From contig JACPNR010000009.1 of NCBI GenBank assembly GCA_016185395.1, positions 295,843-359,842 of the forward strand: a stretch of DNA of 64,000 bases, in the 5' to 3' direction. Source of the DNA: Candidatus Korobacter versatilis. GTDB taxonomy: Bacteria > Acidobacteriota > Terriglobia > Terriglobales > Acidobacteriaceae. Under the pieces are notes generated by a model, which was given only the letters and a program-made list of their open reading frames with translations, ran no database searches and was not told where the DNA came from. Positions 12,175-40,301 of this stretch are shown piece by piece (the stretch's first letter is position 1; each line of letters opens with the position of its first letter). A program made the position numbers and the translations under genes.

Positions 12175-13755
12175 TTAGTCTGTTCTGGCTTTTAGAACCA
12201 CTCCTGCAGACTTTCCTGCCGCATCAACGCGTTCAACCCGGCGGCTCGGCTGGTCGCCTATTTCCACCAGGACGCTGCCATCAACCAGGGCGCCGATCAT
12301 CAGAATGGGCTCTTGGCTTCTCCAGACCCAAAGGATCTTTCCATCAAGAACGTTGAATGCGACGATGGCTCTGTCACCCGCAAAGAAGCCTCTATCATCC
12401 TCCCCCAGCAACATGTTCCAAGCCTTGCGGTCCTTCGGTGGTAGCACGGGCATGTGGTACTCATGAACGGCATCGCCATTGACGCGAAAGACTGACCCTC
12501 GCTCCAAAAGCGCCTTACCATCCAGAATGCTTCCGAGCTGCCCACGCGCAGGGATGAGAGCACCGCCGTGCCCATCAGGAATAGGGCTACCCCAGGGATA
12601 AAGCCATTCGGTAGGTCTTTCCCACGTGACCGTCTGGACTTGGCGACGGATCGTCCGCCAAGTGGTCTCCCCATTGTCGTTGACAGACAGCAGTTGCAGA
12701 TGACTGTCCACTGTGAGCTTGGCCGTGAGCGAGGAGATCAATAGCTCAGGTGCACAGCCGGTCGCATCAAAAGTCGCGTTCAACGTATTGATGGGGAGAT
12801 AGACGGTGTCATTCTCGTCAGTGAAGAGACTCCCGTGGCTACTCGGTCCTGACCGCGATACCGAGGAACCGGGAACGCATTTCGCTCCCATTCCCGGCGG
12901 CGGAACGTACCCTACGTGCTGAGTCAGATTAGTAGGTAGTGGGATCTGTACCTTTCGTTCACCTGTCTCCCCATCGAGCGCAGTCAGCACAGGAACATCT
13001 GGATGATCCTCAACGATGTAAAGCAGGTTGCCGTCTGTATATGTGTAAGCCCACCAAGGAGCAGTAGAAACGCGCCATCGCTCAGTACCGTCGTGGCGCA
13101 GTGCTGCAGTCTGGAACGCGCCACTGACCGCGATTGCAACCACTGCCCCTCCAAAATTGTCACCGCAAATTAGCCGCAGGTCCAAAGGTTCACGCGGCGA
13201 AGGCCAAACCCACTTTTGAATGCCGCTCTCATAGAACGCCCGAATGTAACTACCTTTGTCAGTGCCTTCCTGAACATATAGATCCGGCGTTTCCTCACTG
13301 ACCTTCCGCGATTGCAACTGGTTTCTGACTCGAGCCCCCTCGAGCAACGGCGGCATTGATCTCGCGACCGTTCCCGGCGGTAATTCCGGACCAGGGTACA
13401 CAGTCACATTCGCGGTGAACTCACGTCCGTCCACTGTCGCCCTAACCATTCCCTTGCCCGGCGCAAGCGCCGCGACGTACGACGGACCCGAAGCACCCGC
13501 CACCTCGGTGGGATCGACCAATGCGTCACCATACTCCACGCCCACCGCAATCACTCCATCTCCACTTTCGATGGACCAGAGAGCACTCGTAACATCGCGG
13601 CCCTGCCTGTCCAGAACTTGCAGCCGTTGGCGCCCTCCCACGACTAATCCAACCGGGTTCGGCGAAATCAGGTACTCGCTGTCCTGGGCTCTAGAAATAG
13701 CAGACCCACTCAGCAGCCAGAGAGCAATCACAAACAGCTGCAATCGCTTCCTCAC
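12175..13755 (-). CDS. Exported protein, Ig-like (Big_2-like) N-domain plus a probable beta-propeller
   Basis: Signal peptide RKRLQLFVIALWLLSGSAISRAQ. GTG start overlaps the upstream REC stop (GTGA). Repeated DG...W blades seen by eye. Visibly AT-richer than its neighbours. Confidence 0.7.
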   Translation of the reverse strand: MRKRLQLFVIALWLLSGSAISRAQDSEYLISPNPVGLVVGGRQRLQVLDRQGRDVTSALWSIESGDGVIAVGVEYGDALVDPTEVAGASGPSYVAALAPGKGMVRATVDGREFTANVTVYPGPELPPGTVARSMPPLLEGARVRNQLQSRKVSEETPDLYVQEGTDKGSYIRAFYESGIQKWVWPSPREPLDLRLICGDNFGGAVVAIAVSGAFQTAALRHDGTERWRVSTAPWWAYTYTDGNLLYIVEDHPDVPVLTALDGETGERKVQIPLPTNLTQHVGYVPPPGMGAKCVPGSSVSRSGPSSHGSLFTDENDTVYLPINTLNATFDATGCAPELLISSLTAKLTVDSHLQLLSVNDNGETTWRTIRRQVQTVTWERPTEWLYPWGSPIPDGHGGALIPARGQLGSILDGKALLERGSVFRVNGDAVHEYHMPVLPPKDRKAWNMLLGEDDRGFFAGDRAIVAFNVLDGKILWVWRSQEPILMIGALVDGSVLVEIGDQPSRRVERVDAAGKSAGVVLKARTD

Positions 13756-14528
13756 TCCGACGCCTGCAATGTCTTGACGTGCGCTTCGAGCGCGCGCGAG
13801 TACTCGCGCTCGGCCGTGAGCTCTGACTGGAGCTTCTTCACCAACGACTCCAGCCGCATGATCTCGTTCTTCAGTTTGGCGGCGTCCATGGTCGCAGTGG
13901 CGGTAGGGCGCACCGGCATGGGTGGCGCCACGTGAGCAGGCGCGGGCGCCGCAGCGGCAGCGGCCGGTGCGGCCATGGGAGCAGCAACCGGGCGCGGCGC
14001 GGGCGGCACATAAGCCGGCTGCGCCGGAGCCGGCCGCATCGCCGACGCCGGCCTCGGCGCCGGGTGACTGGCGGAAGCGAAGATGCTGCTGAGCGCGGCG
14101 GAAGCGGCTTCCGGCGGCGGCACGGCCTGTACCGGCGCGCCGGGATACAGCAGATGCTTCACGCGCGTGATCAGGTCCTGCGGCTGGAACGGTTTGCGGA
14201 TGAGCTCGTCCGCTTTCACCGCGAAGGCTTTTTCGGCGACCGCGCGATTCACCACGCCGGACATCAGGATCACGGGCGTCTTGCCCAGCACCGGATGCTG
14301 CTTGATGTACTGGCAGACCTCGTAGCCGTCCTTATCGGGCATGATGACGTCGGTGATGACGATGGACGGCCGTTCCTGCTCGATCATGGCGAGCGCCGAG
14401 GCGGCGTCGTTGCACGCCACCACGTTGATGTTCTCGCGGCGAAACGCGATCTTGATGACCTCGCGCATCGTCGCCGAGTCATCGATGAAATAGATCGTTG
14501 GGGTGGCGCCCTGCGCCAAGTCGCTCAT
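13752..14528 (-). CDS. Response regulator receiver with a Pro/Ala-rich linker and a C-terminal coiled coil
   Basis: Canonical REC residues (FIDDS, IVITDVIMPDKDG, LMSG, IRKPF). The tail KLKNEIMRLESLVKKLQSELTAERE is heptad-like. Confidence 0.85.
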   Translation of the reverse strand: MSDLAQGATPTIYFIDDSATMREVIKIAFRRENINVVACNDAASALAMIEQERPSIVITDVIMPDKDGYEVCQYIKQHPVLGKTPVILMSGVVNRAVAEKAFAVKADELIRKPFQPQDLITRVKHLLYPGAPVQAVPPPEAASAALSSIFASASHPAPRPASAMRPAPAQPAYVPPAPRPVAAPMAAPAAAAAAPAPAHVAPPMPVRPTATATMDAAKLKNEIMRLESLVKKLQSELTAEREYSRALEAHVKTLQASE

Positions 14529-15307
14529 TGCGGACCTCCTCCAGCCACGTCGTGCTCGCCCTCATCTACCTCGCGCAGTGCGTCGAGCATCAGCTCGGTG
14601 GCCGAACGCAGCACGGTCCGGGTTGCGGCCGTCGCGCCCGGGACGAACTTGTACACGCCCACTTCACTGTTGTTGCAGTTCTTCACGATGTGGATCACGG
14701 CGTCGTCACCGATCATGTCGCCGGCCTCGGCGTGCGAGACGTCGCCGAGGTCGAAGAAGATGATGCCGTCGAGCGAGCCGGCATTCACGTGCAGCGCGCC
14801 CGTCTGCCGCGAGTGGTTGAGCATCTGCACCACGCCCGGCAGGTCGAGGTGCGAGAGCGAGCCGGAGAGCGCCGTGTCCGACGCGCCCAGCATCTGCGTG
14901 GGCTGGAAGCCTTCTTCGTGCGAACGCAGGAAGCTGCGCACGTGCGTGGCGATGGAATCCGGCCCGACGCGGCGGTCGATGTAGTCATCGCATCCGGCGC
15001 GGAACGCTTCCATCAGCGCCTGGTCGCCGCCGTCGCCCATCGCGAGGATGGGGATGTGCGCCGTCTTGATGTCGGAGTGCAGCAGCTTCGGCAGCTCGTA
15101 CGCTCCCATCTCGCGCAGGTTGATGGCGCACAGGATGGCGATCGGCGTGTCCCATTCGAGCGAGGTGAGCGCAAACGCCGACTGCGTGGCGTGCGTCACC
15201 TCGAAGCCCTCTTTTTTCAGCGCCTCGGTCAGCCGCTTGGCAAAGAACACGTTGGCGTCGATCACCAGGATCTTGGGAAGGCCCGGCGCTGTTCCGGCTG
15301 CGCTCAT
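14525..15307 (-). CDS. Degenerate receiver domain fused to a DUF4388-like domain
   Basis: REC-like fold, but AILCAINLREMG occupies the place of the phospho-Asp strand and DYIDRR the place of DYxxKP. The C-terminal part LSGSLSHLDLPGVVQMLNHSRQTGALHV..GIIFFDLGDV matches the DUF4388 pattern. Confidence 0.75.
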   Translation of the reverse strand: MSAAGTAPGLPKILVIDANVFFAKRLTEALKKEGFEVTHATQSAFALTSLEWDTPIAILCAINLREMGAYELPKLLHSDIKTAHIPILAMGDGGDQALMEAFRAGCDDYIDRRVGPDSIATHVRSFLRSHEEGFQPTQMLGASDTALSGSLSHLDLPGVVQMLNHSRQTGALHVNAGSLDGIIFFDLGDVSHAEAGDMIGDDAVIHIVKNCNNSEVGVYKFVPGATAATRTVLRSATELMLDALREVDEGEHDVAGGGPQ

Positions 15308-15729: not shown

Positions 15730-16238
15730 GCGGTGGCCGCTCCCCTTTTCGCTTCTTCGGCTCCCGCCACAGCCGCTTGCAGCACCGTGAACTCCGCCTT
15801 CGACATGAACGCCGCCGGGTCGATCACCGGCACCACGCGCTCCTCGATCATGGCCAGCCCGCGATACCACTGCCGCTCTTCCCCTTGGAACGCGCGCGGC
15901 AGGGCGTGCAGCGAACCGATCTCGATGATGCGCTCGGTGTGGTCCACCAGCACCGCGGCTGCCGAATCGCGCAGCACCAGCAGGCGCGTGCCCTTCGAGG
16001 GGAACAGCCGGAAGTGCAGGTTCGAATCCACCACGAAGTACTTCTTGCGGTCGCGGTCGAGCACGTGCTTGAACTTGCCGAGACGCGGCGTGGCCGCTCC
16101 CGCAGGCAGCGGACGGATGCCATCGAGGTTGCGGATCTCTTCCACGGCGTGCGCGGCGATCGCGAAGGTGTAGCTGCCCACGCCGAAAAGGATCATCGCC
16201 TCGCTCTTCCCTCTTGGCTTCTTCTCGGTGCGCCTCAC
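15726..16238 (-). CDS. cheW: CheW-like coupling protein (second paralogue)
   Basis: ILFGVGSYTFAIAAHAVEEI... is CheW-like. GTGA overlap with the cheB stop and ATGA overlap with the next cheW. Confidence 0.75.
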   Translation of the reverse strand: MRRTEKKPRGKSEAMILFGVGSYTFAIAAHAVEEIRNLDGIRPLPAGAATPRLGKFKHVLDRDRKKYFVVDSNLHFRLFPSKGTRLLVLRDSAAAVLVDHTERIIEIGSLHALPRAFQGEERQWYRGLAMIEERVVPVIDPAAFMSKAEFTVLQAAVAGAEEAKRGAATA

Positions 16239-17422
16239 AGGGCACCGACCCTTGCTGCGCCGTAGACATAGAGCACACGTTTTTCGAGCGCCGGAAAGAT
16301 GTTCTCGATGCCGAGCACCTGGTCCACCGCGCCGGTCTTGATGGCCTCGGCGTTCATGCCGAAGATGACGGAGGTGGCTTCGTCTTGCGCGATGACGTGT
16401 CCGCCCTGGTCCTTGATGATCTGTACGCCGCGTGACGAGTCATTGCCCATGCCGGTCAACACGACGCCGATGGACATCGGCCCGGCAAATTGCGCGACCG
16501 TCTCCATCGTCACGTCCGCGCACGGGCGGTACCCGGAGATGCGTGGGCCGTCGTCGAGCGTGATGCGACCCGTCTGCGTGACGCGGAGGTGGTGCGAGCC
16601 CGGACAGACGTAGAGCACGCCCGGCTGCAGCAGCTCGCCCTGCTCGGCTTCTTTCACCTTGATCTGCGCGATCTCCGCGAGCTGCGTGGAGAACTGCGAG
16701 GTGAACGTTCCCGGCATGTGCTGCACCAGGATGACCGCGCCGGCAAAGCCTGCCGGGAAACGCGGGATGAAGTTCATCAGCGTCTGCGGACCGCCGGTCG
16801 AGGCGGCGACTACGACAACCGGGAATTTTCCATTGCCACGCGTCGCGGTAGGCGCTGGAGCAGCCGCAGGCGCGGCCTGCTTCGCCATCGCCGGTGCAGC
16901 GGCGGCAGCGCCACTGGCGCGCGCGGCCACCGGAGGCGGCGCGGGCTCGGTACGCGGCGCCGAGGTCGCGATCTCTGCCCCAAGCTTGGTGCGGACGGCT
17001 GTGCGGACCACCCGGACTTTCGACGCCAGCCGCAGCTTCCGCACCAGCTCTTCGCGGACGCTGTTCATGTCGAGGTCGATGCCGCTCGAAGGTTTGGCGA
17101 CAAAGTCGATGGCGCCGAGTTCCAGCGCCTTGAGCGTGATGTCCGCGCCATCGCGCGATTCCGAACTTACGATCACGATCGGTTTGGGCTGCTTCGACAT
17201 GATGATCTCGGTCGCCTGCAAGCCGTCCACGTGCGGCATGTTGATGTCCATCGTCAGCACGTCGGGATTGAGCTGCTCCGTCTTCTCCACCGCGTCTTTG
17301 CCGTCGCGCGCTTCGCCGCACACTTCCATCGACGGGTCCGCGCTGATGATGCTCTGCAGCACCTTGCGCATGAACGCTGAGTCGTCCACGATCAATACCC
17401 GGATTCGCTTGTCGAACGCCAT
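16235..17422 (-). CDS. cheB: Chemotaxis response regulator protein-glutamate methylesterase with a long Ala/Pro linker
   Basis: REC (VLIVDDS, DVLTMDINMP). Methylesterase motifs ASTGGPQ, VQHMP, GMGNDS. Confidence 0.92.
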   Translation of the reverse strand: MAFDKRIRVLIVDDSAFMRKVLQSIISADPSMEVCGEARDGKDAVEKTEQLNPDVLTMDINMPHVDGLQATEIIMSKQPKPIVIVSSESRDGADITLKALELGAIDFVAKPSSGIDLDMNSVREELVRKLRLASKVRVVRTAVRTKLGAEIATSAPRTEPAPPPVAARASGAAAAAPAMAKQAAPAAAPAPTATRGNGKFPVVVVAASTGGPQTLMNFIPRFPAGFAGAVILVQHMPGTFTSQFSTQLAEIAQIKVKEAEQGELLQPGVLYVCPGSHHLRVTQTGRITLDDGPRISGYRPCADVTMETVAQFAGPMSIGVVLTGMGNDSSRGVQIIKDQGGHVIAQDEATSVIFGMNAEAIKTGAVDQVLGIENIFPALEKRVLYVYGAARVGAL

Positions 17423-17428: not shown

Positions 17429-20400
17429 CTAGGTCGTCCCCACTGCCGCTTTCGTCTGCGTGCCGGCCCCGCCGATGAGCGCCGCGACCTCCGCCAGGAA
17501 CTGGTCTTCCTGCACCGGCTTCACCAGGAAGGCCGCCGCGCCTTCCTTGAGGGCGCGGTCTTTGTGCTTCGCTCCCGCGCGCGACGTCACCACCATCACG
17601 GGGATGTGGCGTGTCTCCGGCGATTGCCGCAAGTGCGCGATCAACTCGTAACCGTTAGTACGAGGCATCTCGAGATCGGTCACGACCAGATCGCAGCGAG
17701 TCTGGGTGGCGATCTCGAGAGCCTCGAGTCCATCGGACGCAAGCTTCACGCGGTAGCCTGCCTTCTCGAGCATGCGACCAACGAATTTGCGTACGCTGAT
17801 GGAATCGTCGGCGAGCACCACGACCTTCTCCTCCACCACCTCGTCGATGGCCGCCGCGGGGATCTCGCCCTTGGCGACCGCCGCGGCGCCCGGCGCGAAG
17901 ATGCGCGCCGCCGTCGCTGAGGCCATCAGCGGACGCCGCTCGATCGCTTCACCCGCGATCAACCGGTTCACGTCCACCAGGAGGATGAGGCTGCCGTCCG
18001 GCGCAATGGTCGCGCCGGGGAACATCTTCATGTTCCGCAGGTACTCGCCCAAACTTTTGATGACTATCTCGTCCTTGCGCAGAACCTCTTCGACCACGAT
18101 GCCGACCTGCCGCGCGGCCACGTTCACCAGCACCAGCCGGTAGTAGCCGTTCACCGGCTCGACCTCAGGAAGCCCGAGGTGCGTATCGAGGCGGACGATC
18201 TCGGTGACGACGTCGCGCACCTTGGTCAGCAGCTTGCCGCCGACTTCCTCGATCTCGTCGGCACGCAGCCGGCGTATCTCCTCGACGAACGCCAGCGGGA
18301 GCGCGAAGGTCGCCTCGCCGCAGCGCACGAACAACGCCTGCGAGATGATGAGCGTGAGTGGGACCTTCAGCGTGAAGCGCGAGCCGCGTCCCTTCTCGGT
18401 GTCGATCTCGATCTCGCCGTTCAGCGCGGCCACGTTGGCTTTGACCACGTCGAGCCCGACGCCGCGTCCGGCCAGTTCGGTCTTGCGTGGCGCGGTGGAG
18501 AATCCCGGGTGGAAGAGCAGGTCGAGCAGATCGCGCTCGGTCAGGCGTTCGATGTCGTCTTGAGCGACCAGGCCGGCCTCGATGGCGGTGGCGCGGACGC
18601 GGTCGTAGTCGATGCCGCGGCCGTCGTCCTCTACCTCTATATAGATGTGGTTGCCGCGGTGGTATGCGCGCACCGCGATGTTGCCCGAATCGGGCTTGCC
18701 GGCCGCGTAGCGCTCGTCGTGCTTTTCGAGGCCGTGCGCCACGGCGTTGCGCACCAGGTGGACGAGCGGGTCGGATATCTGCTGGATGATGTTGTTATCC
18801 AGTTCCGTCTCCGCGCCTCCGAGCGTCAGCTCCACTTGCTTGTTCGAGGCCTTCGCCGCATCGCGTACCGTGCGCGAGATGCGCGTATAGAGATTGCCGA
18901 TGGGCACCATGCGCGCCTGCGTGATCTCGTCCTGCAGGCGGTGTGCAAGCTTGGTGAACTCGTCGATATCGGAATCCACGCGGCGTACGAAGCCATCGAG
19001 CTGCGTCAGCACCTCCGTGATGTCGGCGGAGATCTCGGAGAGCGACCGCGACAGGATGTTGAAGTCGTCGTAGCGGTCCATCTCCAGCTCGCTGAACTCC
19101 GCCAGCGACGCGTCATACGAATGCGTGTAGCTGGAGTACCCGCCGCGATACGGCGAATCGAAGCTGATCCCCTTCTCCGCCTTCGGCTTCGGCGCGTTCG
19201 ACGTGATTTGTGAGAACTCGTGCTTCTCGGTGAACTCGGAGACCTTGTCGGACATGCGTCCCTTGGAGAAGTTCAGCACGTCGGCGAGTTTTTCCAGCTC
19301 GGCAAGACGGCCGAGCATGCGCGTACGGTTGATCACCAGCTCGCCGACCGCGTTCATCATGCGGTCCAGCCGCTCCAGGCCGATGCGCACCGACTTCGAC
19401 TGCGGCATCGCGACCGGCTCCTTGCGCAGCACGGTCTCGTCGTCCTCTTTCGCTTCGACGTGCGGCTCGCGGCGCACCGGCTCGATGTGCATCGGCGCCG
19501 CGACTTCCGGGACCGCGGACTCGGCGGCGACTCCGGACTGGGCCGGAACGTGCGCGGCCTCCGCAGCAGGCGATTCCGCTACCGCAGGCGCAACCATCGG
19601 CGCGGCAATCCCTTCCTCGCCTTCCTCCGGCGCGAGGCGCCCGATGCGATACATCAGCGCGCGCGTCGAGGCCTGCATCGTCAGCTCGTCCGGCCACTGG
19701 CGATAGAGGAACTTCTTCAGGATATCGACAGACTCCAGGCACAAGTCCACGATCTCAGCGGAGGGCTTGAGCTGCCCTTCGCGCAGCCGTCCGACCAGGT
19801 CTTCGGCCCGGTGCGCCACGCGCGAGATGCGCAGTAATCCCACTTGCGCCGCCGCGCCCTTGATGGTGTGGATAGCGCGGAACAGCCGGTTGATGTCTTC
19901 CGGATTCGGGTTCGCCTCGAGCGCGAGCAAGCACTCGGTCACGACCTGCAAATGCTCTTCCGCCTCCGGCACGAAGAATTCCAGGATCTCTTCCGGGACT
20001 TCTCCATCCGCGGGCAGGTCCGCGATCTCCGGCAGCGGCGCTTGCTCCGCGACCGTACCCTCGGACTGTTCGAGATACGCCGGCTCTTCTTCGGCTTCCG
20101 CCGGCGCCTGGAACGCGAACGGATACTTCTGCTTGAACGACGCGATGTCTTCGACCGCCTCCGCCGACGTCGCGCTGATCATGATCAGGTCGGACTCGAG
20201 CACCGCGATGGCTTCCGAGATGAACTCGACCAGCGGTCCGGCAGCGTCCGGACCTATCGTTGCGTTCATCGCGTATTGGAAAATGTGCGCCAGCTTGCCG
20301 CTCACGTCGGAAAACAGCGGGTAGCCGTAGCTCGCCGAAGTCCCCGCCAGCGTGTGCGCCGAGATGTACAACCGCTCCAGGTCCTCCGGCACGGGATATG

Positions 20401-23843: not shown

Positions 23844-23859
23844 AGCAATTGCGCAGCCA
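23844..23859 (-). promoter_or_regulatory. Sigma-54 (-24/-12) promoter candidate for chemosensory operon 1
   Basis: The minus strand reads TGGCTG-CGCAA-TTGCT, with the GG and GC in the exact consensus register of TGGCAC-N5-TTGCW. It lies about 65 nt upstream of the cheY ATG in an AT-rich intergenic region. Confidence 0.6.
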
Positions 23860-26811: not shown

Positions 26812-26822
26812 AGTCTCACGCA

Positions 26823-28249
<1,427 letters not shown>

Positions 28250-28253
<4 letters not shown>

Positions 28254-28648
28254 ACGGCCTTCCCGAATATCTTCTGCACGACCTCGAGCAGTTGCTGCAC
28301 ACGGAAGGGTTTCTCCACGCACGGCGCGTTCGTCTTGCGCAGCAACGCAACCGTCTCTTCGTTCACCGTGTCGCCGGTGACCAGGATCACGCGGTCGGCG
28401 AGATGTGGCCGGTTGGTCACGATCCAGGCGTGCACGTCGGCGCCGCTCACTCCGCCGGGCGTGCGCATGTCGGTGATCACGCCGCGGAACTCGGCTGTCT
28501 CGAACAGCTTCAGCGCTTCCACGCCCGAGGACGCGGTCACGACCGAATACCCACTGCGTTCGAGCGCCGCCTGCAGGAACGCCATCACCGACGGCTCGTC
28601 CTCGACCACGAGGATGGGCAACACTGCGGGCTTCGTCGTCGCTGTCAT
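28250..28648 (-). CDS. Stand-alone response regulator receiver
   Basis: 132 aa from ATG 28648 (MTATTKPAVLPILVVEDEP...GVITDMRTPGG...EKPF). ATGA overlaps on both sides. Confidence 0.85.
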
Positions 28649-32088: not shown

Positions 32089-32103
32089 GTCTCACTATGA
32101 GAC
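32089..32103. promoter_or_regulatory. Palindrome GTCTCA-CTA-TGAGAC, candidate UAS in the divergent control region
   Basis: Exact 6+6 inverted repeat. Its centre is about 148 bp upstream of the -24 GG at 32244-32245. Extra TGAGAC half-sites lie at 31951-31956, 31972-31977 and 32128-32133. Confidence 0.55.
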
Positions 32104-32242
32104 AGATGCGGCTAGGTAGGGGGCTGATGAGACTGGTTCTCGCTCCACCGGAGCCCAAAGTGGAGCCGCCATATCCAGTGTAACTTGTTGTAAATATTAG
32201 CATTGGACTTTTATTTCTGTTTCCGTCCGAATGCCTGCAGGG

Positions 32243-32258
32243 TGGCACCGGCATTGCA
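32243..32258 (+). promoter_or_regulatory. Sigma-54 (-24/-12) promoter, perfect consensus
   Basis: TGGCAC-CGGCA-TTGCA read directly. It lies about 40 nt upstream of the GAGGAGGAG Shine-Dalgarno and GTG 32297 of the first gene of chemosensory operon 2. Confidence 0.7.
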
Positions 32259-32296: not shown

Positions 32297-32632
32297 GTGT
32301 CTTTCAGTCGATTTAAAAGTTGGGTCGCGCGTGCTGCGCTGGTCGCAGTGATTGCCGCGAGCGTAACGCCGTCCGCGCTGGCGGACGACCGCAAGATCAA
32401 GTCAGAGGTCAAGCCGGCTTATCCGGAACTCGCGAAAAAAATGAACGTAAGCGGCGCGGTGAAGGTGGAGATCGTTATCACTCCCGCCGGCACGGTGAAG
32501 AGCGCGAAGGCGCTCGGCGGACATCCGCTGCTGATTGAACCCTCGGTCGAGGCCGCCAAGAAGTGCAAGTTCGAACCGGGCAGCGGTGAGACCACGCAAG
32601 TCATGACCTTCAATTTCAAAGCAGCCCAGTAA
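32297..32632 (+). CDS. Small exported TonB C-terminal-domain protein
   Basis: Signal-like [19 protein letters not shown], then [29 protein letters not shown]...FEP, typical of TonB_C. Start moved to GTG 32297, behind a strong SD; the track start is 32231. Confidence 0.75.
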
Positions 32633-32660
32633 TCGCCCGCAAGCGGCGGAGGCAACGGTA

Positions 32661-34655
32661 ATGAACATCGGCAAGAAACTCTTCTACGGATTTGGCGCCA
32701 TTCTCGGATTGCTGCTCCTGCTCTACGGCGTGAGCACCACCGCGCTGTGGCGCGCGGACAGCGCTCGCCGCGCGACCATGACCTCGCTCGACACCATGCG
32801 CGGCATGGAAGACGTCCGCTTGCAGATGATGACCAACCGCCAATACCTGGATAGCTACCTCCTCGCCGGCGTTCCCGGCGAACTGGAGAAGTTCCGCGCC
32901 GGATTGTCCGATCTCCAGAACAAGCTGCGCATCGCCGAGTCCAAGGCCACCGACGAACAGCGCGCCGCGCTCGGCACCGTGCGCAATTCAGAAGCAACCT
33001 GGTTCAGCAGCTACGCTGACCCGCTCATCCAAAAACGCCAGCAGGTGGATTCCGGCAACGCGACCGCCGCTGACCTGCAGATCGCTTTCATTCAGCTTCA
33101 GGAGAAGAACGAGCAACAGCTCACCGCCTCCACGACCGCCCTCGACCAGGTGGAAAAGGTCACGCAGAAGGCCGCGGAGGAGCAACGCGATTCCAGTGAC
33201 ACCACCGCCCGGTTCGCCTACTGGGCGTCGTTCATCTTCATGGTCATCGCCTGCGTGCTTGGCGGTTTCATCGCCATCCGCACCGCGAATTCCATCACCG
33301 AGCCGCTCGGGCGCCTCATCGTCGTTGCCGACCAGATCGGCAACTCCGGCGACCTAGAACACTCCATCGACATCAGCGGTTCCGACGAGATCGGCGAACT
33401 CGCCCGCACCTTCAACAACATGGTCGCGTACCTCAAGGAGATGGCCGCGGTCTCCGAAGCCATCGCCGGCGGCGACCTCTCTGTTCAGGTCGAGCCGCGC
33501 TCGCAGCGCGACACTCTCGCCAACGCCTTCTCGGCCATGACCACCGGCCTGCGCGCGCTCGTGAAGCGCGTGCGTGATAGCGCCGCGCAAGTCGCCAGCG
33601 GCTCCAACCAGGTCGCGGACGCCTCCGATGAATCCGCCAAGATCAGCGTGCACGCCTCCTCGGCCATCGACGAAGTCACCAGCACCATGCACGAGATGTC
33701 CATCAACGTGCAGAACATGGTGAAGAACACGCAGACGCAGGCCTCGAGCGTTTCCGAGACCTCCGCCTCCATCGACCAGATGGTCGCCTCCATCCAGCGC
33801 GTGGCCGATACCGCGAAAGTCCTGCTCGACATCTCGCAGCGTTCGCGCGAAGAGGTGCAGAGCGGCATCACCACCATGGAGAAAGCGACGGACGGACTCA
33901 CCCGCATCAACGGCTCCATCCGCTCGTCTGGCGAGATCATCGGCGCTCTCGGTCAACGCGCCGACGACATCGGCAAGATCATCGAGGTCATCGACGACCT
34001 CGCCGAGCAGACCAACTTGCTGGCGCTGAACGCCGCCATCGAAGCCGCCCGCGCCGGCGAGCACGGTCTCGGCTTCGCCGTCGTTGCGGACGAAGTCCGC
34101 AAGCTGGCGGAAAAATCAGCGTCGTCCACCAAGGAGATCAGCGAACTCATCCAGTCCATCCAGAAGGAGGCCCGCAAGGCGGTCGAGAACATGGAGAAGT
34201 CGACCACCATCGTGAACGAGGGCCTCACGCTCGGGTCCGACCTCTCCACCGCGCTGCGCAAGATCTCGAACGTCGTCACCGAGGTCTACAAGTTCGCGCA
34301 GGAGATCGGCGCCGCCACCAACGAGCAATCGCACGGTTCGGCGCAGATCGCCAAGGCCACCACGCGGCTCAACGAGATCACCCACGAGATCAATTCCTCC
34401 GTCGAGGAGCAGGCCTCGGGCGCGCAGGCCGTGGTCAAGGCCATGGAAAAGATGCGCGAACTGGTGCAGCAATCCACTTCCGGCTCCACCGAGTTGGCCG
34501 CTTCGGCGGAGCAGATGTCGAAGATGTCGCGCATGCTGCTCGAAGCCATGGACCGCTTCGTCATCGAGTCGAACGGCGACGCACGCCACGCGATGGCGCA
34601 GCGCCGCCACGGACACGAACCGGGCCGCATGGCGGCCGCGGCGGCGAGGAACTAG
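32661..34655 (+). CDS. Methyl-accepting chemotaxis protein (four-helix-bundle type sensor, HAMP, signalling domain)
   Basis: Two TM segments flank a periplasmic region of about 160 aa. Signalling hairpin [32 protein letters not shown]. Confidence 0.92.
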
Positions 34656-34664
34656 GGCAGACGC

Positions 34665-35156
34665 ATGATCACCAAGGACCTGCACATCGTCGGGTTCCGC
34701 ATCGGGCGCGAGACGTTTGGCGTCCCCATCGAGCTGGTGCACGAGATCGTGCGCGTGCCCGAGATCACTGCCGTGCCCGATTCGCCCGAGTACATCGAGG
34801 GCGTCATCAACCTGCGCGGCAAGATCATCTCCGTCGTCGATCTGCGCAAGCGCTTTGGCGAGCGCGAGATCACCTGGACGAAGAAGAACCGCATCCTCGT
34901 CGCCGAGTTGGAAGATAAGAAGGTCGGGCTCATCGTCGACGCGGCTTCGGAAGTCATCAAGCTCCCCCGCACCGATGTCGACAATCCGCCCAACGTCTTC
35001 GAGGAAGGCGAGTTGAACTACGTGACCGGCGTGGGCAAGCTCAACGGCCGGCTCATCATCCTCATCGAGTTGGCGAAGATCCTGCAGCGCGGCGAATTGA
35101 AACGGCTGGGCGATCTGGCGGAAGCGGCGCAATCGGCCGCATCCGCGGGCTCGTAA
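34665..35156 (+). CDS. cheW: Chemotaxis coupling protein CheW
   Basis: HIVGFRIGRETFGVPIELVHEIVRVPEIT...INLRGKIISVVDLRKRFG. Confidence 0.92.
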   Translation: MITKDLHIVGFRIGRETFGVPIELVHEIVRVPEITAVPDSPEYIEGVINLRGKIISVVDLRKRFGEREITWTKKNRILVAELEDKKVGLIVDAASEVIKLPRTDVDNPPNVFEEGELNYVTGVGKLNGRLIILIELAKILQRGELKRLGDLAEAAQSAASAGS

Positions 35157-35196
35157 TAGCGGACCCGTATCAGGACGCGGCGGCACCTTTGTCGCG

Positions 35197-36126
35197 ATGC
35201 AGCACTGGCGAGAGGCGATGGCGACGACACCGAGTCTTCAGATCCAACTGACCGAACCCGAACTCAAGCTGCTGCAGACCCTGATCTATCAGGAATGCGG
35301 CATGTATTTCGACGAGCGCCGCGTCCACTTCCTGCAGGACCGCTTGCAGCGCCGCCTCAAGGCCACCGGCCTCGAGAGTTTCTATCGCTATTACCAGCTC
35401 CTCACCAGCCGCGAAGGCAAGAGCGAACTCTCCGCGCTGCTCGAGAACCTCACCGTCAACGAGACCAGCTTCTTCCGCAACAAGCCGCAGCTCGACCTCT
35501 TCCACAAGAACACGCTCGAAGAGATCCTGCAGCGCAAGACCGAGCGGCGCGATTGGAGCCTGCGGGTGTGGAGCGCCGGATGCTCGACCGGCCAGGAACC
35601 CTACACGCTCGCCATGCTCATCTGCGACGCGCTCGCCTACTACTACCTGCGCAACCCGCTTCCCTTCGAGATGCCGAGCCCAAAGCCGCTCATCCCGCCG
35701 CCGTGGAGAGTGGAGATCCTCGCTTCCGACATCAACTACTCCGTCCTCCGCGCGGCGCAAGAGGCCGTCTATCCCGAGAACCACATGGAGCCGGTGGATT
35801 ACACCTATCGCCTGCGCTACTTCGATAAGGGCGGCGACAAGTATTCCATCAAGAAAGCGGTCAAGGACCTCGTCCACTTCGACTTCCACAATCTGAAGAC
35901 GGAGTTCTTGCCGCAGCGCAACGACGTCATCTTCTGCCGCAATGTGATGATCTATTTCGACGAAGCCGAGCAGAAGCGCCTGGTCGACAAGTTCTATCGC
36001 TGCCTGAACCGCGAGGGCTATCTCTTCGTCGGGCACGCGGAGAGCCTCTTCGGCCTCACCGACAAGTTCAAAATGATCCACGTGAACAACGGCACCGCAT
36101 ACCAGCGCATCGAGGCTGCCCCGTGA
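35197..36126 (+). CDS. cheR: Chemotaxis protein methyltransferase
   Basis: TSFFRN segment and SAM-binding LRVWSAGCSTGQEPYTLAM. An alternative start at ATG 35218 is possible. Confidence 0.9.
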   Translation: MQHWREAMATTPSLQIQLTEPELKLLQTLIYQECGMYFDERRVHFLQDRLQRRLKATGLESFYRYYQLLTSREGKSELSALLENLTVNETSFFRNKPQLDLFHKNTLEEILQRKTERRDWSLRVWSAGCSTGQEPYTLAMLICDALAYYYLRNPLPFEMPSPKPLIPPPWRVEILASDINYSVLRAAQEAVYPENHMEPVDYTYRLRYFDKGGDKYSIKKAVKDLVHFDFHNLKTEFLPQRNDVIFCRNVMIYFDEAEQKRLVDKFYRCLNREGYLFVGHAESLFGLTDKFKMIHVNNGTAYQRIEAAP

Positions 36127-38192
36127 GTTTCTTCTCGGAAGACAAGGCGAGCGAGCTCAAAGAGATCTTCTTCGAAAGCGCGCAGGAACTCCTGCAGACG
36201 CTGAACGAGGAAGCGCTCGCCCTGGAGAAGAACCCCGCCGACGCCGAGACCGTGCGCAGCGTCCGCCGCACCGTGCACACGCTCAAGGGCGATTCCGCCG
36301 CTTGCGGTTATCGCGAGCTGAGCGAGCTCGCGCACGAACTAGAAGACGTGCTCACGCCCGAGCTCGCGCAGAGCGCCCAGAACGCGCGCATCCCGGAAGT
36401 AGTACTCGCCGCTGCGGACACCTTCCAGTCCATGCTCGCCGCGTATCGCAACAACCTGCAGCCGCCTTCGGGCGACGCCCTGCGCCAGCACGTCCGTAAG
36501 CTCACCAGCGCGCCCGCTGCTCCCGAACAGGCAAGGCTCGCTCCCACCTTCGCGTGGTCGGAATACGAGCAGGTCGTGATCGCGCACTCATTGGATAAGG
36601 GCAACAACATCTTCCACGTCGCGCTGCAGATCGACCGTGACTGCCCGATGCGCGCCGCTGCGATGCAGATGATCCGCAACGTCGTCGGCGATTTCGGCAC
36701 CGTGCTTGCCATCCATCCCGAGGACAACACGCCCGCTGAGCAGATCGACGTGGTCGAGATGGCCATCGCCAGCAAGCACGACGAGCAATGGATCGCGAAG
36801 AAGTCGCACATCCCTGCCGTCATCAAGGATGTCGTCGTAGTGCGCGCCGGGGGCGCGGCCGAGACGGCGCCGGCAAAGACGGTCCTCGAGATCGCCGACA
36901 CGCTCACTCAGCCCGTGCTCACCGCCGTCCCTGCGCCCGCCGAATCCAAAGACGAGCCCGCGGAAAAGACCGCCAGCAAGAGCGTGGTCTCCGAGAACAG
37001 CCTGCGCGTGGACGCCGACCGCATCGACGACGTCCTCAACCTCGTCGGCGAGCTCATCATCGGCAAGTCGATGCTCCTGCAAACGATGAGCGAGTTCGAC
37101 AAGCGCTTCGCCAAGGACCCGCTGCGCGGCAAGTTCGCCGACGCCATGGCATTCCAGGCGCGCGTCCTCACCGACCTGCAGAAATCGGTGATGAAGATCC
37201 GCATGGTGCCGGTCGAGCAGCTCTTCCGCCGCGTGCCGCGCGTCATCCGCGACGTCGCCAAGAGCGCCGGCAAGGAAGTCGCGCTCCAGATCAGCGGGCA
37301 GGACACCGACCTCGACAAGAGCATCCTCGATACGCTCGCCGAGCCGCTCACTCATCTCGTGCGCAACGCGGTCGACCACGGACTCGAAGCGCCGCAGGAG
37401 CGCGTCGCGCTCGGCAAGCCCGCGGCCGGGACCATTCGCCTCAACGCCTTCCACCAGGGCAATCAGGTCGTCATCGAAGTCGGCGACGACGGACGCGGCA
37501 TCGATCGCGCCAAGGTCGTCGCGAAAGCCATCGAGCGCGGCATCGTCACCGCGGATGAAGCCGGCCGCATGAGTGAAGGCGAGCAGTTCGCGCTTATCTT
37601 TAATCCCGGCCTCTCGACCGCGGCGCAGGTCACCGAAGTCTCCGGACGCGGCGTTGGCATGGACGTAGTCAAGACCGTGCTCGACCGGCTGAAAGGTTCC
37701 ATCATCATCCTCAGCAAGGTCGGCGAAGGCACCACGTTCCAGTTGAAGGTACCGCTCACGCTCGCCATCATCAAAGCGTTGCTGTTCCGCGTGGCCGACA
37801 AACTTTACGCCGTCCCGCTCGGTTCCGTCCTCGAGATCACGCGCGCCCGCGAGAGCGAGATCCATCGCGTGGACAACCACGAGGTGGTGCAGTTGCGCGA
37901 CCAGGTGCTCACGCTCGTCCGCGTCGCCAAGCTCAGCAAGCGCAAGGCGTCGCCCGGCAAACAGTTGTTCATCGTCATCATCGCCATCGGCGACCGCAAG
38001 TTCGGACTCGTGGTCGACCGCCTCATCGGCGAAGAAGAATTGGTCATCAAGGCGCTCGACGATCATCTCGTCGCCACCGAACTGGTGTCCGGCGCCTCCA
38101 TCCTCGGCGATGGAACCGTCGTCCTCATCCTGAACGTGCAGGCCGTCGTCGGACGCGTCGGCCGCGAGGGCGCGAAGGGAGCGCACGCATGA
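36123..38192 (+). CDS. cheA: Chemotaxis histidine kinase CheA (single Hpt)
   Basis: Hpt RRTVHTLKGDSAACG. HLVRNAVDHG, DDGRGID and GRGVGMD boxes. C-terminal CheW-like domain. Confidence 0.95.
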   Translation: MSFFSEDKASELKEIFFESAQELLQTLNEEALALEKNPADAETVRSVRRTVHTLKGDSAACGYRELSELAHELEDVLTPELAQSAQNARIPEVVLAAADTFQSMLAAYRNNLQPPSGDALRQHVRKLTSAPAAPEQARLAPTFAWSEYEQVVIAHSLDKGNNIFHVALQIDRDCPMRAAAMQMIRNVVGDFGTVLAIHPEDNTPAEQIDVVEMAIASKHDEQWIAKKSHIPAVIKDVVVVRAGGAAETAPAKTVLEIADTLTQPVLTAVPAPAESKDEPAEKTASKSVVSENSLRVDADRIDDVLNLVGELIIGKSMLLQTMSEFDKRFAKDPLRGKFADAMAFQARVLTDLQKSVMKIRMVPVEQLFRRVPRVIRDVAKSAGKEVALQISGQDTDLDKSILDTLAEPLTHLVRNAVDHGLEAPQERVALGKPAAGTIRLNAFHQGNQVVIEVGDDGRGIDRAKVVAKAIERGIVTADEAGRMSEGEQFALIFNPGLSTAAQVTEVSGRGVGMDVVKTVLDRLKGSIIILSKVGEGTTFQLKVPLTLAIIKALLFRVADKLYAVPLGSVLEITRARESEIHRVDNHEVVQLRDQVLTLVRVAKLSKRKASPGKQLFIVIIAIGDRKFGLVVDRLIGEEELVIKALDDHLVATELVSGASILGDGTVVLILNVQAVVGRVGREGAKGAHA

Positions 38193-39271
38193 GCGACCCG
38201 GTGCGCGTCCTGGTGGTCGACGATTCCGCGCTCATGCGGAAGCTCATCCCGCAGATCCTCGAGCGCGACAACAGCATCCAAGTCGTCGGCACGGCCATGG
38301 ACGGCAGCTTCGGCCTGAAGAAGATCGACGAGCTCAAGCCCCAGGTCGTCACCCTCGACCTCGAGATGCCGCGCATGGATGGCATCGAGACGCTGCGCGA
38401 GATCACCAAGCGCCATCGCATCCCGGTCATCGTCGTCAGCGCGCATACCACGCAAGGCGCGTCCGCCACCTTCAAAGCGCTCTCGCTCGGTGCCTTCGAT
38501 TTCGTCGCCAAGCCCAAGGACGCCGCCTCCGCCCGCATGGAGGACATTGCCACCGAGCTCATCACCAAGATCAAGGCGGCCGCGCAGACGAAAATGCCCA
38601 GCACGCCGCGCTTCGAGCTCTCGGCACTGCCTTCGCTCCGCCGGCCGAAGCAACACGGAAAGCCGCACGCTGCGCCCAGCCGCGTGGTCGCCATCGGCAT
38701 CTCCACCGGCGGCCCGAACGCGCTGCAGTACGTCCTCTCCCAATTGCCCGGAGACTTTCCCGGCTCCCTCATCGTCGTGCAGCACATGCCGGAAGGGTTC
38801 ACCGACCTGTTCGCCCGCCGCCTCGACGAATGTTGCGCCATCGAAGTGAAGGAAGCGCAGTCCGGCGACCTGCTCGTCGCGGGACGCGCCCTCATCTGTC
38901 CCGGCAACCGGCACATCAAAGTCCGCCGCATGCCCCTCGGCAACATCGTGGTGCTCTCCGACGAAGAGCGCGTCAACGGACATCGCCCGTCGGTGGACAT
39001 CCTCTACCGCTCGGTCGCGCAAGAGTTCGGCAAGGAAGCCATCGCCGTCATCATGACGGGCATGGGCGAAGACGGCGCCGACGCGCTCGGCGTGGTCAAG
39101 GCCGCCGGTGGTTTGACCATCGCACAGAGTGAGGATTCGTGCGTCGTCTACGGCATGCCGAAGGCCGCCATCGAGCGCGGACACGCCATCCGCGTGGTGC
39201 CGCTCGACATGATGGCCAACACGCTGCAGGCGCAGTGCGTCCCCGAACGGGCGCGCGCGGTGAAGGTCTGA
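38189..39271 (+). CDS. cheB: Chemotaxis methylesterase/response regulator CheB
   Basis: REC (VLVVDDS, VVTLDLEMPRMDG). ISTGGPN, VQHMP and GMGEDG motifs. Confidence 0.95.
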   Translation: MSDPVRVLVVDDSALMRKLIPQILERDNSIQVVGTAMDGSFGLKKIDELKPQVVTLDLEMPRMDGIETLREITKRHRIPVIVVSAHTTQGASATFKALSLGAFDFVAKPKDAASARMEDIATELITKIKAAAQTKMPSTPRFELSALPSLRRPKQHGKPHAAPSRVVAIGISTGGPNALQYVLSQLPGDFPGSLIVVQHMPEGFTDLFARRLDECCAIEVKEAQSGDLLVAGRALICPGNRHIKVRRMPLGNIVVLSDEERVNGHRPSVDILYRSVAQEFGKEAIAVIMTGMGEDGADALGVVKAAGGLTIAQSEDSCVVYGMPKAAIERGHAIRVVPLDMMANTLQAQCVPERARAVKV

Positions 39272-39360
39272 TGGTTAAGGTGGAAAAGCATCCGGGATAA
39301 GGTGGGGCGCGGCGAGCGCCCGGTGGCAAGATAAGCAGCACGTGGTTCAGGAGACTGGTC

Positions 39361-39807
39361 ATGGAACAATTCGCGGCTCTGCTTCGCAGCAAAGACAAGC
39401 AGCCGGTACGTTATCTCGTGGTCGACGATTCCGTGTTCGCCCGCAAGAACATCACCAAGATGATCGAGACCTTCGGCGGACAAGTGGCGGGTGAGGCCGG
39501 CGACGGCTGCACTGCTATCACCGAATACGACCGCACCCGTCCCGACGTCGTGCTCATGGACATCACCATGCCGCAGATGGAAGGCATCGAGGCGGCCGAG
39601 CGTATCGTGCGCAATCATCCCGAAGCCCGCGTCATCATGGTCTCCTCCGTCGGCTACCAGGAGAACATCGTGACCGCGCTGCAAAAGGGCGCGCGCCACT
39701 TCGTGCAGAAGCCGGTGAAGCCGGAAGTGCTCTACGAGGTGATCAAATACGTGCTCGGTGAAGACGCCGTCGCGGCCGCCGGCGCCGCCGCAGGAGAAAA
39801 GCAATGA
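39361..39807 (+). CDS. cheY: Chemotaxis response regulator CheY
   Basis: YLVVDDS, VVLMDITMPQMEG, MVSS, VQKP. Confidence 0.9.
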   Translation: MEQFAALLRSKDKQPVRYLVVDDSVFARKNITKMIETFGGQVAGEAGDGCTAITEYDRTRPDVVLMDITMPQMEGIEAAERIVRNHPEARVIMVSSVGYQENIVTALQKGARHFVQKPVKPEVLYEVIKYVLGEDAVAAAGAAAGEKQ

Positions 39808-40301
39808 GGATGGAGCTCATTCAACCCTTCATCAACGCGGCAGACGCCGTCTTGGCCGAGACCCTGCAGTGCTCCACCAAGATCGGCGACGTGGCGATGG
39901 AAGAGGAAGCCTATCGCCGCAAGGGCACCGCCGCCATCATCCACATCCATGGCGATATTGAAGGCCGCGTGATCTTCGACCTCGACAACGCCACCGCCGC
40001 CAAGGTCGCGGCCTATCTCGCCGGCGAACCCGTCGGCGAGAGCGCCGACATCATTCGCGAGACCGTCTTCGAACTCGCCAACCAGATCATCGGCAACGCC
40101 GTCACCACGCTCAATGACCAGGGCTTCCGCTTCAAGATCGCGCCGCCGGAACTGCACTCGGACGAACTGGGGGAGAAGAGCAACGAGGAGCAGGAAGCCC
40201 TCGTCATGTGCTTCGACACCGCCAACGGCAGCGTCTACATGAACATCGCCATGCGCTACAATCGCCGCCGCCGCCAGGAACGCGCCGTCGTCGCCGGATA
40301 G
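39804..40301 (+). CDS. cheX: CheX/CheC-family CheY-P phosphatase
   Basis: E-x3-E-x2-N-x22-P, read as ETVFELAN...(22 aa)...P, close to the family motif D/S-x3-E-x2-N-x22-P. ATGA overlap with cheY. Confidence 0.8.
   Translation: MRMELIQPFINAADAVLAETLQCSTKIGDVAMEEEAYRRKGTAAIIHIHGDIEGRVIFDLDNATAAKVAAYLAGEPVGESADIIRETVFELANQIIGNAVTTLNDQGFRFKIAPPELHSDELGEKSNEEQEALVMCFDTANGSVYMNIAMRYNRRRRQERAVVAG

Follow-up and report, generated by a model that had tools for sequence, protein, structure and literature searches.

Two chemosensory operons around a kinase/activator pair in a conserved acidobacterial gene block: a predicted sigma-54 regulon

What holds two chemotaxis-type pathways, a sensor kinase/activator pair and three little-annotated genes together in 28 kb of one bacterial contig? 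The question is raised by a block at 12.1-40.3 kb of a 64-kb window of one source contig (JACPNR010000009.1, Candidatus Korobacter versatilis); the window is the whole stretch of DNA that was analyzed, and the 25 genes of the block are designated g1 to g25. We are moderately confident that the block is one conserved acidobacterial sigma-54 regulon of four transcription units, working by the mechanism proposed below. It is read as one regulon because three of the units share a sigma-54 element with a palindrome at a fixed distance from it, and because the gene for an NtrC-type activator is central. As judged from the arrangement of genes and sites, the kinase/activator module probably serves the three units as a common switch of transcription.

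Gene content was read from the listing of open reading frames (ORFs) and from Pfam and NCBIfam scans, and the list and order of all 25 genes given by the first-pass annotation, a reading of the bare sequence, were borne out. In Pfam terms the minus-strand operon (g11 to g1) encodes CheY, CheW, a methyl-accepting chemotaxis protein (MCP), CheR, a CheA with two Hpt domains and a C-terminal receiver domain (REC), CheB, two further CheW proteins, a REC-DUF4388 protein, a REC protein and a protein with a signal peptide. The plus-strand operon (g18 to g25, first annotated as 32231-40301) encodes a TonB_C protein, an MCP, CheW, CheR, CheA, CheB, CheY and CheX. Between them lie the genes for a histidine kinase (g17), a single REC (g16), an NtrC-type enhancer-binding protein (EBP, g15) and three proteins of 116, 528 and 227 aa (g14, g13 and g12). 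All 13 of the ATGA/GTGA gene overlaps listed at the outset were found in place, and the minus strand has intergenic gaps of 268 nt between g15 and g14 and of 162 nt between g12 and g11. The operons had been described as back-to-back around the kinase/activator module; they do enclose it, but in a head-to-head plus tandem arrangement.

The two strongest terminator-like hairpins of the region sit just outside the outermost genes and bracket the interval first assigned to the block exactly. Strong terminators were found at these two outer ends only, with none inside the transcription units. Base composition is equal inside the block and in its flanks, and the block is therefore not an island in the mobile sense that its first description would suggest.

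Conservation of the block and of its promoter regions

Relatives of the block were collected with g13 as the marker in a pattern scan using one genome per species, and g13 relatives were found in at least 563 species genomes. Except for a few bins that carry the labels of other phyla, the best 80 loci are from uncultured Acidobacteriota of the Terriglobales, Ca. Angelobacter and Ca. Acidiferrales. Synteny was determined by tblastn of all 25 proteins against these best 80 loci, the upstream side being counted in loci with at least 9 kb upstream and the downstream side in loci with at least 9 kb downstream. The EBP gene with the divergent mcp-cheW-cheR genes was kept in 63 of 67 loci, the downstream cheY-cheW-mcp-cheR-cheA-cheB series in 60 of 63, and both sides in 49 of the 54 species-level genomes with enough flank. 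The called genes of three relatives whose g13 is 44-69% identical were found in the same order on both sides, and the layout persists down to marker protein identities of 35-48%. A subset of Ca. Angelobacter loci (L025-L028) lacks the two distal CheW genes g4 and g5, and g12/g14 as well. The layout is restricted to, and widespread in, uncultured Acidobacteriota; an arrangement kept in no relative, which the first reading had named as the sign of a chance neighborhood, is clearly contradicted by these counts.

The cis elements are conserved with the genes (Table 1). The promoter in front of the plus-strand che operon matches the consensus at 9 or more of 11 positions, at the equivalent place, in 67/67 loci. 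The -24/-12 element before g14 has a conserved position in 69/72 loci, and a like element was found 55-85 nt before the start of the cheY gene g11 in 60/71; the background rate of such matches is one per 2.1 kb. No sigma-70-like promoters were found in the intergenic regions of the block. Each of the three promoters is preceded at a fixed distance by a 15-bp palindrome, GTCTCA-N3-TGAGAC. The TGAGAC hexamer is rarer in the window than expected (16 copies compared with 34), and 10 of the 16 copies cluster upstream of the three promoters. Only these three palindromes with no or one mismatch occur in the 64 kb, compared with a chance expectation of about 0.14. The 83 related loci (1.55 Mb) contain 218 palindromes with at most one mismatch, every one of them at one of the three syntenic positions, where chance alone would give about 3 in total.

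These positions are in or just after g12 on the g11 side (78 loci), between the EBP gene and g14, or g13 where g14 has no match (82 loci), and in the divergent region (58 loci). The distances from the palindrome center to the -24 element were determined to have medians of 126, 90 and 158 nt, respectively, and the interquartile ranges are 124-126, 81-91 and 156-158 nt. Read from the sequence, the arrangement is the textbook geometry of an upstream activating sequence (UAS) for a sigma-54 EBP. The protein g15 is the obvious candidate for the binder, because no other DNA-binding protein is encoded in the block and because it is of NtrC type with a GAFTGA motif and an invariant helix-turn-helix (HTH), in which a segment of 13 residues does not vary across 70 orthologues. 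Pfam gives 233 bits for its Sigma54_activat domain and also matches REC and HTH_8; the NCBIfam matches are to AtoC/NtrC-like models, below their equivalog cut-offs. A separate observation concerns the g14 promoter: the segment AATCAATGGCTTA at 26745-26757 (minus-strand reading), between the palindrome and the -24 element, was matched by eye to the integration host factor consensus WATCAANNNNTTR.

Table 1. Promoters, palindromes, genes and terminators of the block, in order along the window
Feature	Position	Strand	Basis or remark
Intrinsic terminator, end of the long minus-strand che operon	12107..12134	-	12-bp stem, 9 GC pairs, T-rich tail, 40 nt past the last stop
g1, 526-aa exported protein with signal peptide	12175..13755	-	weak beta-propeller/PQQ_2 similarity, Pfam E=2e-4, below cut-off
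g2, response regulator: intact REC, Pro/Ala-rich linker, conserved ~45-aa C-terminal coiled coil	13752..14528	-	Pfam REC, 88 bits
g3, pseudo-receiver + PATAN (DUF4388/PatA_N, PF14332)	14525..15307	-	Pfam REC and DUF4388
g4, CheW adaptor	15304-15729	-	divergent from g5; Pfam CheW 54.6 and 33.4 bits for the pair
g5, CheW adaptor	15726-16238	-	scores with g4
g6, CheB methylesterase with REC	16235..17422	-	Pfam CheB_methylest 189 bits, and REC
g7, 1022-aa hybrid CheA, Hpt-Hpt-P3-HATPase-CheW-REC	17429..20497	-	Pfam, two Hpt stretches
g8, CheR methyltransferase	20494..21381	-	Pfam CheR, 186 bits
g9, 475-aa MCP, two transmembrane segments, two HAMP, 40H signaling domain	21425..22852	-	alignment to PcaY (6s18)
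g10, CheW	22890-23411	-	Pfam
g11, single-domain CheY	23419-23778	-	Pfam; complete active site in receiver alignment
Sigma-54 -24/-12 element of the Pil-Chp-like operon, TGGCTGCGCAATTGCT	23844..23859	-	consensus match 8/11
g12, 227 aa: degenerate receiver-like N-domain + HisKA/DHp (dimerization and histidine phosphotransfer) helix pair, no ATPase domain	23941..24624	-	Pfam
Putative UAS palindrome GTCTCACGATGAGAC	23978..23992	.	perfect; inside 3' end of g12; extra half-site 23963-23968
g13, 528 aa: all-alpha N-domain, disordered linker, small C-domain	24621..26207	-	AlphaFold2 (AF2) model
g14, 116-aa split beta-barrel, PilZ-like	26204..26554	-	AF2, predicted local distance difference test score (pLDDT) 82.5
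Sigma-54 -24/-12 element of the three-gene unit, TGGCTGTTGCCGTGCA	26707..26722	-	consensus match 8/11
Putative UAS palindrome GTCTCAGGATGAAAC	26797..26818	.	one mismatch (26797-26811), plus flanking TGAGAC half-site
g15, NtrC-type EBP: REC, sigma-54 AAA+ with GAFTGA, Fis-type HTH	26823..28253	-	Pfam
g16, single-domain receiver between kinase and EBP	28250..28648	-	Pfam REC; active site intact, E12 replacing D12
g17, GAF-GAF-PAS-PAS-HisKA-HATPase histidine kinase	28645..32037	-	Pfam; start coordinate uncertain
Putative UAS palindrome GTCTCACTATGAGAC	32089..32133	.	perfect (32089-32103); half-site 32128-32133; divergent region; weaker copy 32021-32035
Sigma-54 promoter of the classical che operon, TGGCACCGGCATTGCA	32243..32258	+	consensus match 11/11, perfect TGGCAC-N5-TTGCA
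g18, 111-aa exported protein, TonB_C domain only	32297..32632	+	Pfam TonB_C, signal peptide, ribosome-binding site; start revised
g19, 664-aa MCP, two HAMP, 44H signaling domain	32661..34655	+	alignment to TM1143 (2ch7)
g20 CheW, g21 CheR, g22 CheA, g23 CheB	34665..39271	+	Pfam
g24 CheY (148 aa) and g25 CheX phosphatase	39361..40301	+	Pfam REC, CheX, CheC
Bidirectional terminator, end of the plus-strand che operon	40325..40349	.	10-bp stem, 8 GC pairs, T tracts on both strands

Gene products of the four units and a proposed mechanism

The kinase g17 is probably soluble; its sensor region varies in length, with orthologues of 797-1281 aa. Its gene may begin further downstream than annotated, possibly at ATG 31962. 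Within the annotated 5' end of g17 (31951-32035) there are TGAGAC half-sites at 31951 and 31972 and a palindrome with two mismatches at 32021-32035. These half-sites and the weaker copy, together with the palindrome of the divergent region, all in the upstream or 5' region of the kinase-receiver-EBP unit, hint that the unit may be autoregulated.

The two chemosensory clusters are of different kinds, as had been proposed, with a 40H receptor and a hybrid CheA in one and a 44H receptor and CheX in the other. The receptor g9 is assigned to class 40H because it aligns gaplessly to the 40H receptor PcaY (6s18), has two symmetric insertions of 14 residues that the 36H receptor Tsr lacks, and forms a hairpin with its tip at E319 and arms of 140 residues. 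The outer loop between its two transmembrane segments has only about 20 residues. The hybrid CheA g7 keeps the histidine in both Hpt motifs and carries its REC at residues 893-1004. The dimerization hairpin in the P3 domain of g7 contains an insertion of about 80 residues (residues ~422-504) relative to the CheA proteins of T. maritima and E. coli, and the alignment to the T. maritima CheA in the Protein Data Bank (PDB) picks up again at residue 504.

An alignment of all receivers in the block demonstrates that the phosphorylation residues are kept in all except g3 and the degenerate N-domain of g12, which lacks T87 and K109. The receiver of g2 keeps D12, D13, D57, S87 and K109. In g3, D13 and D57 are changed to alanine and K109 to arginine, and g3 is thus a pseudo-receiver, the label that it was first given. 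Its PATAN domain is matched with 57 bits, and the g3 orthologues are 58-90% identical across loci. The gene for g2 follows that for g3 in L025, L026, L028, L034 and L064. In L063 (Ca. Acidiferrales, 12100-13200) the Pil-Chp-like che genes have been lost and the g2 orthologue stands directly behind g12 and the UAS/promoter; this retention of g2 alone behind the promoter suggests that it is a core member of the regulon.

The exported protein g1 at the operon end has a GC content at third codon positions of 0.59, compared with 0.84-0.90 in the neighboring genes, and overlaps g2 by 4 bp despite this deviating composition. No relatives of g1 were found in the 80 related loci or in the JGI metagenomes, and in L025 the operon stops after g2. 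Because relatives were found in neither collection, g1 is probably a recent lineage-specific addition to the operon tail.

In the plus-strand operon the TonB_C gene g18 was found as annotated, except for its start. It cannot start at 32231, because the perfect sigma-54 promoter would then lie inside the coding region; the likely start is GTG 32297, behind the ribosome-binding site GAGGAGGAG. Orthologues of 114-131 aa are in line with the revised size. The g18 gene shares its transcription unit with the 44H receptor g19, which aligns gaplessly over 273 residues to the 44H receptor TM1143 (2ch7), with the hairpin tip at E467, and has a periplasmic domain of about 170 aa. The CheA g22 has the domains P1-P2-P3-P4-P5 and no REC, although the P2 match is weak (E=7e-4). 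Pfam found no CheC, CheD or CheV in this operon and only CheX with a CheC-like motif. The pathway looks flagellar-type from its sequence, because of the 44H receptor, the P2-like region of CheA, the single-domain CheY and CheX.

The products of the three-gene unit have little or no annotation. No Pfam family was matched by g14 or g13, nor any NCBIfam family by g13, and g12 matched HisKA only (27.6 bits, residues 149-201). The AF2 model of g13 has a pLDDT of 80 overall and above 90 in the folded parts, and its all-alpha N-domain comprises residues 1-295. No fold match was found for this model in the PDB, the best Foldseek E value being 0.8. There are 483 homologues of g13 in the database, all from Acidobacteriota or Terriglobales where named, and with a confident model but no PDB fold match the family is a candidate new domain family. 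The best low root-mean-square-deviation Foldseek matches of g14 are the PilZ domains of MotI/DgrA, BcsA, MrkH and PlzD, with E~3e-3 and template-modeling (TM) scores of ~0.5. The residues R31 and R35, an RxxxR-like pair, are conserved in g14; no D/NxSxxG motif and no Pfam PilZ match were found in it. A riboswitch search of the ~140-nt g14 leader returned no Rfam match.

The phospho-His position of g12 is occupied by His in 26 of 72 orthologues and by Pro in 46. A general role of g12 as a Spo0B/ChpT-like phosphotransferase is ruled out by this proline. Among the orthologues, which lie in L008-L087, the two forms separate by lineage, with His in the Terriglobales-like and Pro in the Ca. Acidiferrales-like ones, and the surrounding H-box is nearly invariant. 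Because g12, g13 and g14 are conserved together with the block and are preceded by a UAS and a promoter of their own, they are probably accessory or adaptor proteins of the signaling system.

From these components we propose the following mechanism. The soluble GAF/PAS kinase g17 would phosphorylate the NtrC-type activator g15, and the receiver g16 would serve as a side branch or phosphate sink. The activator would bind GTCTCA-N3-TGAGAC at about 90, 126 and 158 nt upstream of the three sigma-54 promoters and switch on the g14-g13-g12 unit, the Pil-Chp-like operon and the flagellar-type operon together. The first of these would supply the PilZ-like barrel g14, the protein g13, for which the PDB gave no fold match, and g12 with its degenerate receiver and DHp helices. 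In the Pil-Chp-like operon, the 40H receptor would sense with almost no periplasmic domain, the hybrid CheA g7 would phosphorylate the CheY g11 and the receiver-coiled-coil protein g2, and the pseudo-receiver-PATAN protein g3 would act as a docking or output module. The flagellar-type operon would contribute the 44H receptor, the small exported TonB_C protein, a CheA with P2, CheY and CheX. By analogy, the Pil-Chp-like pathway may act on type IV pili or cell polarity and the 44H pathway on flagella.

Relation to known systems and competing explanations

The minus-strand operon resembles the Pil-Chp system and the cyanobacterial Tax systems in its sequence features. The likeness to Pil-Chp of P. 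aeruginosa, claimed by the first-pass annotation, was upheld: the order g11-g10-g9-g8-g7-g6-g5 is identical to pilG/H-pilI-pilJ-pilK-chpA-chpB-chpC, g7 has more than one Hpt and a C-terminal receiver, there is more than one CheW adaptor, and g9, like PilJ, belongs to the 40H receptors. The 40H class of PilJ and the use of several adaptors by systems of the type IV pilus (Tfp) and alternative cellular function (ACF) classes are taken from the literature (PMC13599512); the 40H type is not exclusive to the Tfp class. The differences are that g7 has two Hpt domains compared with many in ChpA, that a single CheY takes the place of the antagonistic PilG/PilH pair, and that g9 lacks the large periplasmic domain of PilJ. 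In addition, the block has genes for the pseudo-receiver-PATAN and REC-coiled-coil proteins and no adjoining pil genes, and its operon has a sigma-54 promoter with a dedicated UAS, in a phylum without reported Tfp-class systems. NCBIfam gave generic names only for the CheA and MCP proteins of the block, and PDB sequence searches with both CheA proteins and CheY did not discriminate between chemotaxis classes.

The resemblance to Frz that had also been proposed is weak, in that neither a cytoplasmic FrzCD-type receptor nor FrzZ is present. Membership in the Frz system was rejected because g9 has two transmembrane segments and no dual-REC protein is encoded; only the CheA-REC hybrid matches. Two candidates for g2 were likewise rejected. 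RomR consists of a REC, a Pro-rich linker and a Glu-rich RomR-C region with invariant Trp and Pro (PMC3441718), whereas the C-terminal 45 residues of g2 form a coiled coil without Trp or Pro, and only the architecture is similar. FrzS combines a pseudo-receiver with a long coiled coil, whereas the receiver of g2 is intact.

The Tax systems (PixG/PixH-PixI-PixJ-PixL) also combine a plain CheY, a PATAN-receiver protein and a hybrid CheA in one operon. PATAN is the output domain of the cyanobacterial Tax regulators, and it is also found beside mglA/mglB genes; in Synechocystis it binds PilB (PilB1) and PilC (bioRxiv 10.1101/2021.06.11.447907). The block differs in having CheB and CheR and a receptor without a photosensory domain. 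A PatA-type (PATAN-REC) assignment for g3 was rejected, given that REC precedes PATAN in it and D57, D13 and K109 are missing.

The plus-strand operon shares with the F1 systems of Thermotoga and Bacillus a 44H receptor, a P1-P5 CheA with a P2-like region, a single-domain CheY, CheB, CheR and a phosphatase of the CheC/CheX family; 44H receptors accompany F1 flagellar systems (bioRxiv 10.1101/2022.05.07.491037). It differs from them in lacking CheC, CheD and CheV, in the co-transcribed exported TonB_C protein, and in having a sigma-54 promoter compared with promoters of the sigma-28/sigma-D type. The control module is like FlrB/FlrC, FleS/FleR, FlgS/FlgR and PilS/PilR, in which a histidine kinase and a REC-AAA+-HTH activator serve -24/-12 promoters with an upstream site. 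In the block, however, the targets are chemosensory operons and three little-annotated genes rather than structural genes for flagella or pilins, GAF/PAS domains form the sensor region of the kinase, and an extra single receiver lies between kinase and activator. To our knowledge, GTCTCA-N3-TGAGAC is not the described site of any of these regulators.

Several observations count against the reading of the block as one regulon with the proposed mechanism. Both minus-strand promoter elements match the consensus at only 8 of 11 positions in the window. The binding of the palindrome by g15 is a prediction from sequence. The fold of g14 matches PilZ weakly (TM ~0.5), with scores equal to those of flavin-reductase barrels. 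The domain order of g3, REC-PATAN, is opposite to the PATAN-REC order of Tax and PatA regulators, and g3 has a dead receiver. Surveys based on MiST place Tfp-class systems only in Gamma-/Betaproteobacteria and Cyanobacteria, and because of this restriction a formal classifier may call the hybrid-CheA system ACF. Finally, as already noted at the outset for flagellar, pilus and exopolysaccharide genes, none of these was found among the remaining ORFs of the 64-kb window, and no pilus, flagellar or mglAB gene lies in the window or within 10 kb on either side of any relative (80 loci in the case of pil genes). The outputs of both pathways thus rest on analogy.

A version of the mechanism in which transcription is the main output of the hybrid-CheA pathway has to be taken seriously. 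The closest precedent for the combination of kinase, activator and che genes is the Che3 system of M. xanthus with CrdS/CrdA, in which CheA3 and the kinase CrdS jointly set the phosphorylation of the NtrC-like CrdA, and there is no CheY (PMC3147164). By this explanation the hybrid-CheA pathway would be of ACF type, g7 would alter the phosphate on g15 or g16 beside g17, and chemosensory input would gate the regulon, the flagellar-type che operon included. As in the precedent, where the histidine kinase and the NtrC-like activator are regulated together with CheA3, the chemosensory cluster adjoins a histidine kinase and an NtrC-type activator; here the kinase, REC, EBP and che genes share a strand within a single conserved block. 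The CheA is a REC hybrid, as in ACF systems, and a 40H receptor almost without a periplasmic domain would fit an internal or membrane signal. Unlike Che3, the block has a canonical CheY and two more receiver proteins, g2 and g3, with tails that do not bind DNA, which point to protein-level outputs, and it holds a second, flagellar-type che operon and the three little-annotated genes, all behind the same UAS/promoter design. We regard this explanation as somewhat unlikely overall; it is compatible with the one-regulon reading and does not exclude it.

It is also conceivable that the minus-strand pathway has no link to pili and instead controls another function, such as biofilm matrix, cell envelope or development, by way of g2, g3 and g1, the likeness to Pil-Chp reflecting shared ancestry of gene order only. 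The absence of pil genes near any of the 80 loci would be accounted for, as would the lack of reports of Tfp-class systems outside Proteobacteria and Cyanobacteria; ACF systems such as Wsp likewise have a CheA-REC hybrid and two CheW proteins, and the exported g1 is placed at the operon end in this organism. However, g1 is compositionally foreign and not conserved, and hence is not the ancestral output. PATAN is tied to the pilus motor by experiment and to MglA/MglB by gene neighborhood, and the unit is predicted to be co-regulated with a motility-type che operon. We consider this explanation unlikely.

Less probable still is that the motifs are real and serve a different regulator, such as a repressor, an unlinked EBP or one of g12-g14, with the adjacent kinase and EBP regulating other genes. 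Among EBPs the Fis-type HTH of g15 is a generic motif, and g15 binding is itself predicted. Metagenomes were scanned for further members of the regulon, that is, for the palindrome with a strong sigma-54 promoter at other spacings, and 29 contigs were obtained, one of which carries the same block. On the others the pair precedes unrelated or unknown small ORFs, many of these contigs are low in GC, and mostly no EBP gene is in view; no flagellar or pilus genes were found behind the pair on these other contigs. A comparison of the g15 HTH with that of an EBP encoded beside the same motif on an unrelated contig was uninformative, the motif being generic. On the other side, three of the 29 contigs, L103 and L112 among them, do carry an EBP gene within ~2 kb. 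Within the block, palindromes 80-160 nt upstream of sigma-54 elements with fixed spacing are the classic EBP geometry, and the EBP gene is the sole DNA-binding gene and is co-conserved with all three sites. We therefore find a different regulator very unlikely. In the same scan, six near-identical non-acidobacterial marine contigs (L090, L093, L106, L107, L110 and L111; GC 0.46) were found to have the motif pair, at 108-nt spacing, before a 112-aa ORF, and on L091 and L097 it precedes homologous exported proteins of ~212 aa with a GDCED motif.

A chance juxtaposition of two unrelated che clusters and a two-component system, for which only the prior speaks that bacteria with many che clusters sometimes have adjacent ones, is refuted here by the arrangement in 49 of 54 species-level genomes, some with a marker only 35-48% identical, and by the shared cis elements before three units.

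Novelty, significance and flanking features

In the literature searched on acidobacterial chemosensory or sigma-54 regulation, no description of this block was found. The components are of known kinds, and the combination is new, in that two different chemosensory operons and three further genes share one conserved UAS/sigma-54 design. In soils, Acidobacteria rank with the most abundant bacteria, and the control of their movement and surface behavior is almost uncharted; most lineages with the block are uncultured. The block offers a concrete, testable circuit of one kinase, one activator, three operator/promoter pairs and two chemosensory pathways, in which a single switch may coordinate the expression of two different chemosensory machines. 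It also ties three families with no or almost no annotation, g13 (at least 563 genomes), g14 and g12, to chemosensory signaling.

The one-regulon reading can be extended to a phylum-specific motility-signaling regulon, in which one kinase/activator pair co-expresses a flagellar-type pathway and a pilus/polarity pathway of Pil-Chp architecture together with three new accessory proteins, possibly with feedback of CheA on the activator. We put this forward tentatively, as an extension that is possible and well short of probable. If it is true, the minus-strand operon would extend Pil-Chp-type pathways beyond Proteobacteria and Cyanobacteria for the first time, and feedback of the hybrid CheA on the activator would possibly let one chemosensory system gate the expression of the other. 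The Pil-Chp-type layout and the PATAN module may operate well beyond the groups studied so far.

The remaining ORFs of the window are housekeeping genes, including those for GcvT, an E1 dehydrogenase, UvrB, Ku, peptidases, Sua5, MgsA, RodZ and a GAF-GGDEF protein. Three proteins encoded in the flanks may be of separate interest: the Ku protein of non-homologous end joining (41864-42730), a 504-aa Fic-domain protein (53625-55139) and the GAF-GGDEF diguanylate cyclase (60066-61247). An Acido-Lenti-1 small RNA was found at 62464-62509 on the plus strand (Rfam RF01687, 42.6 bits, above the gathering score), and its presence in the window is consistent with an acidobacterial origin.

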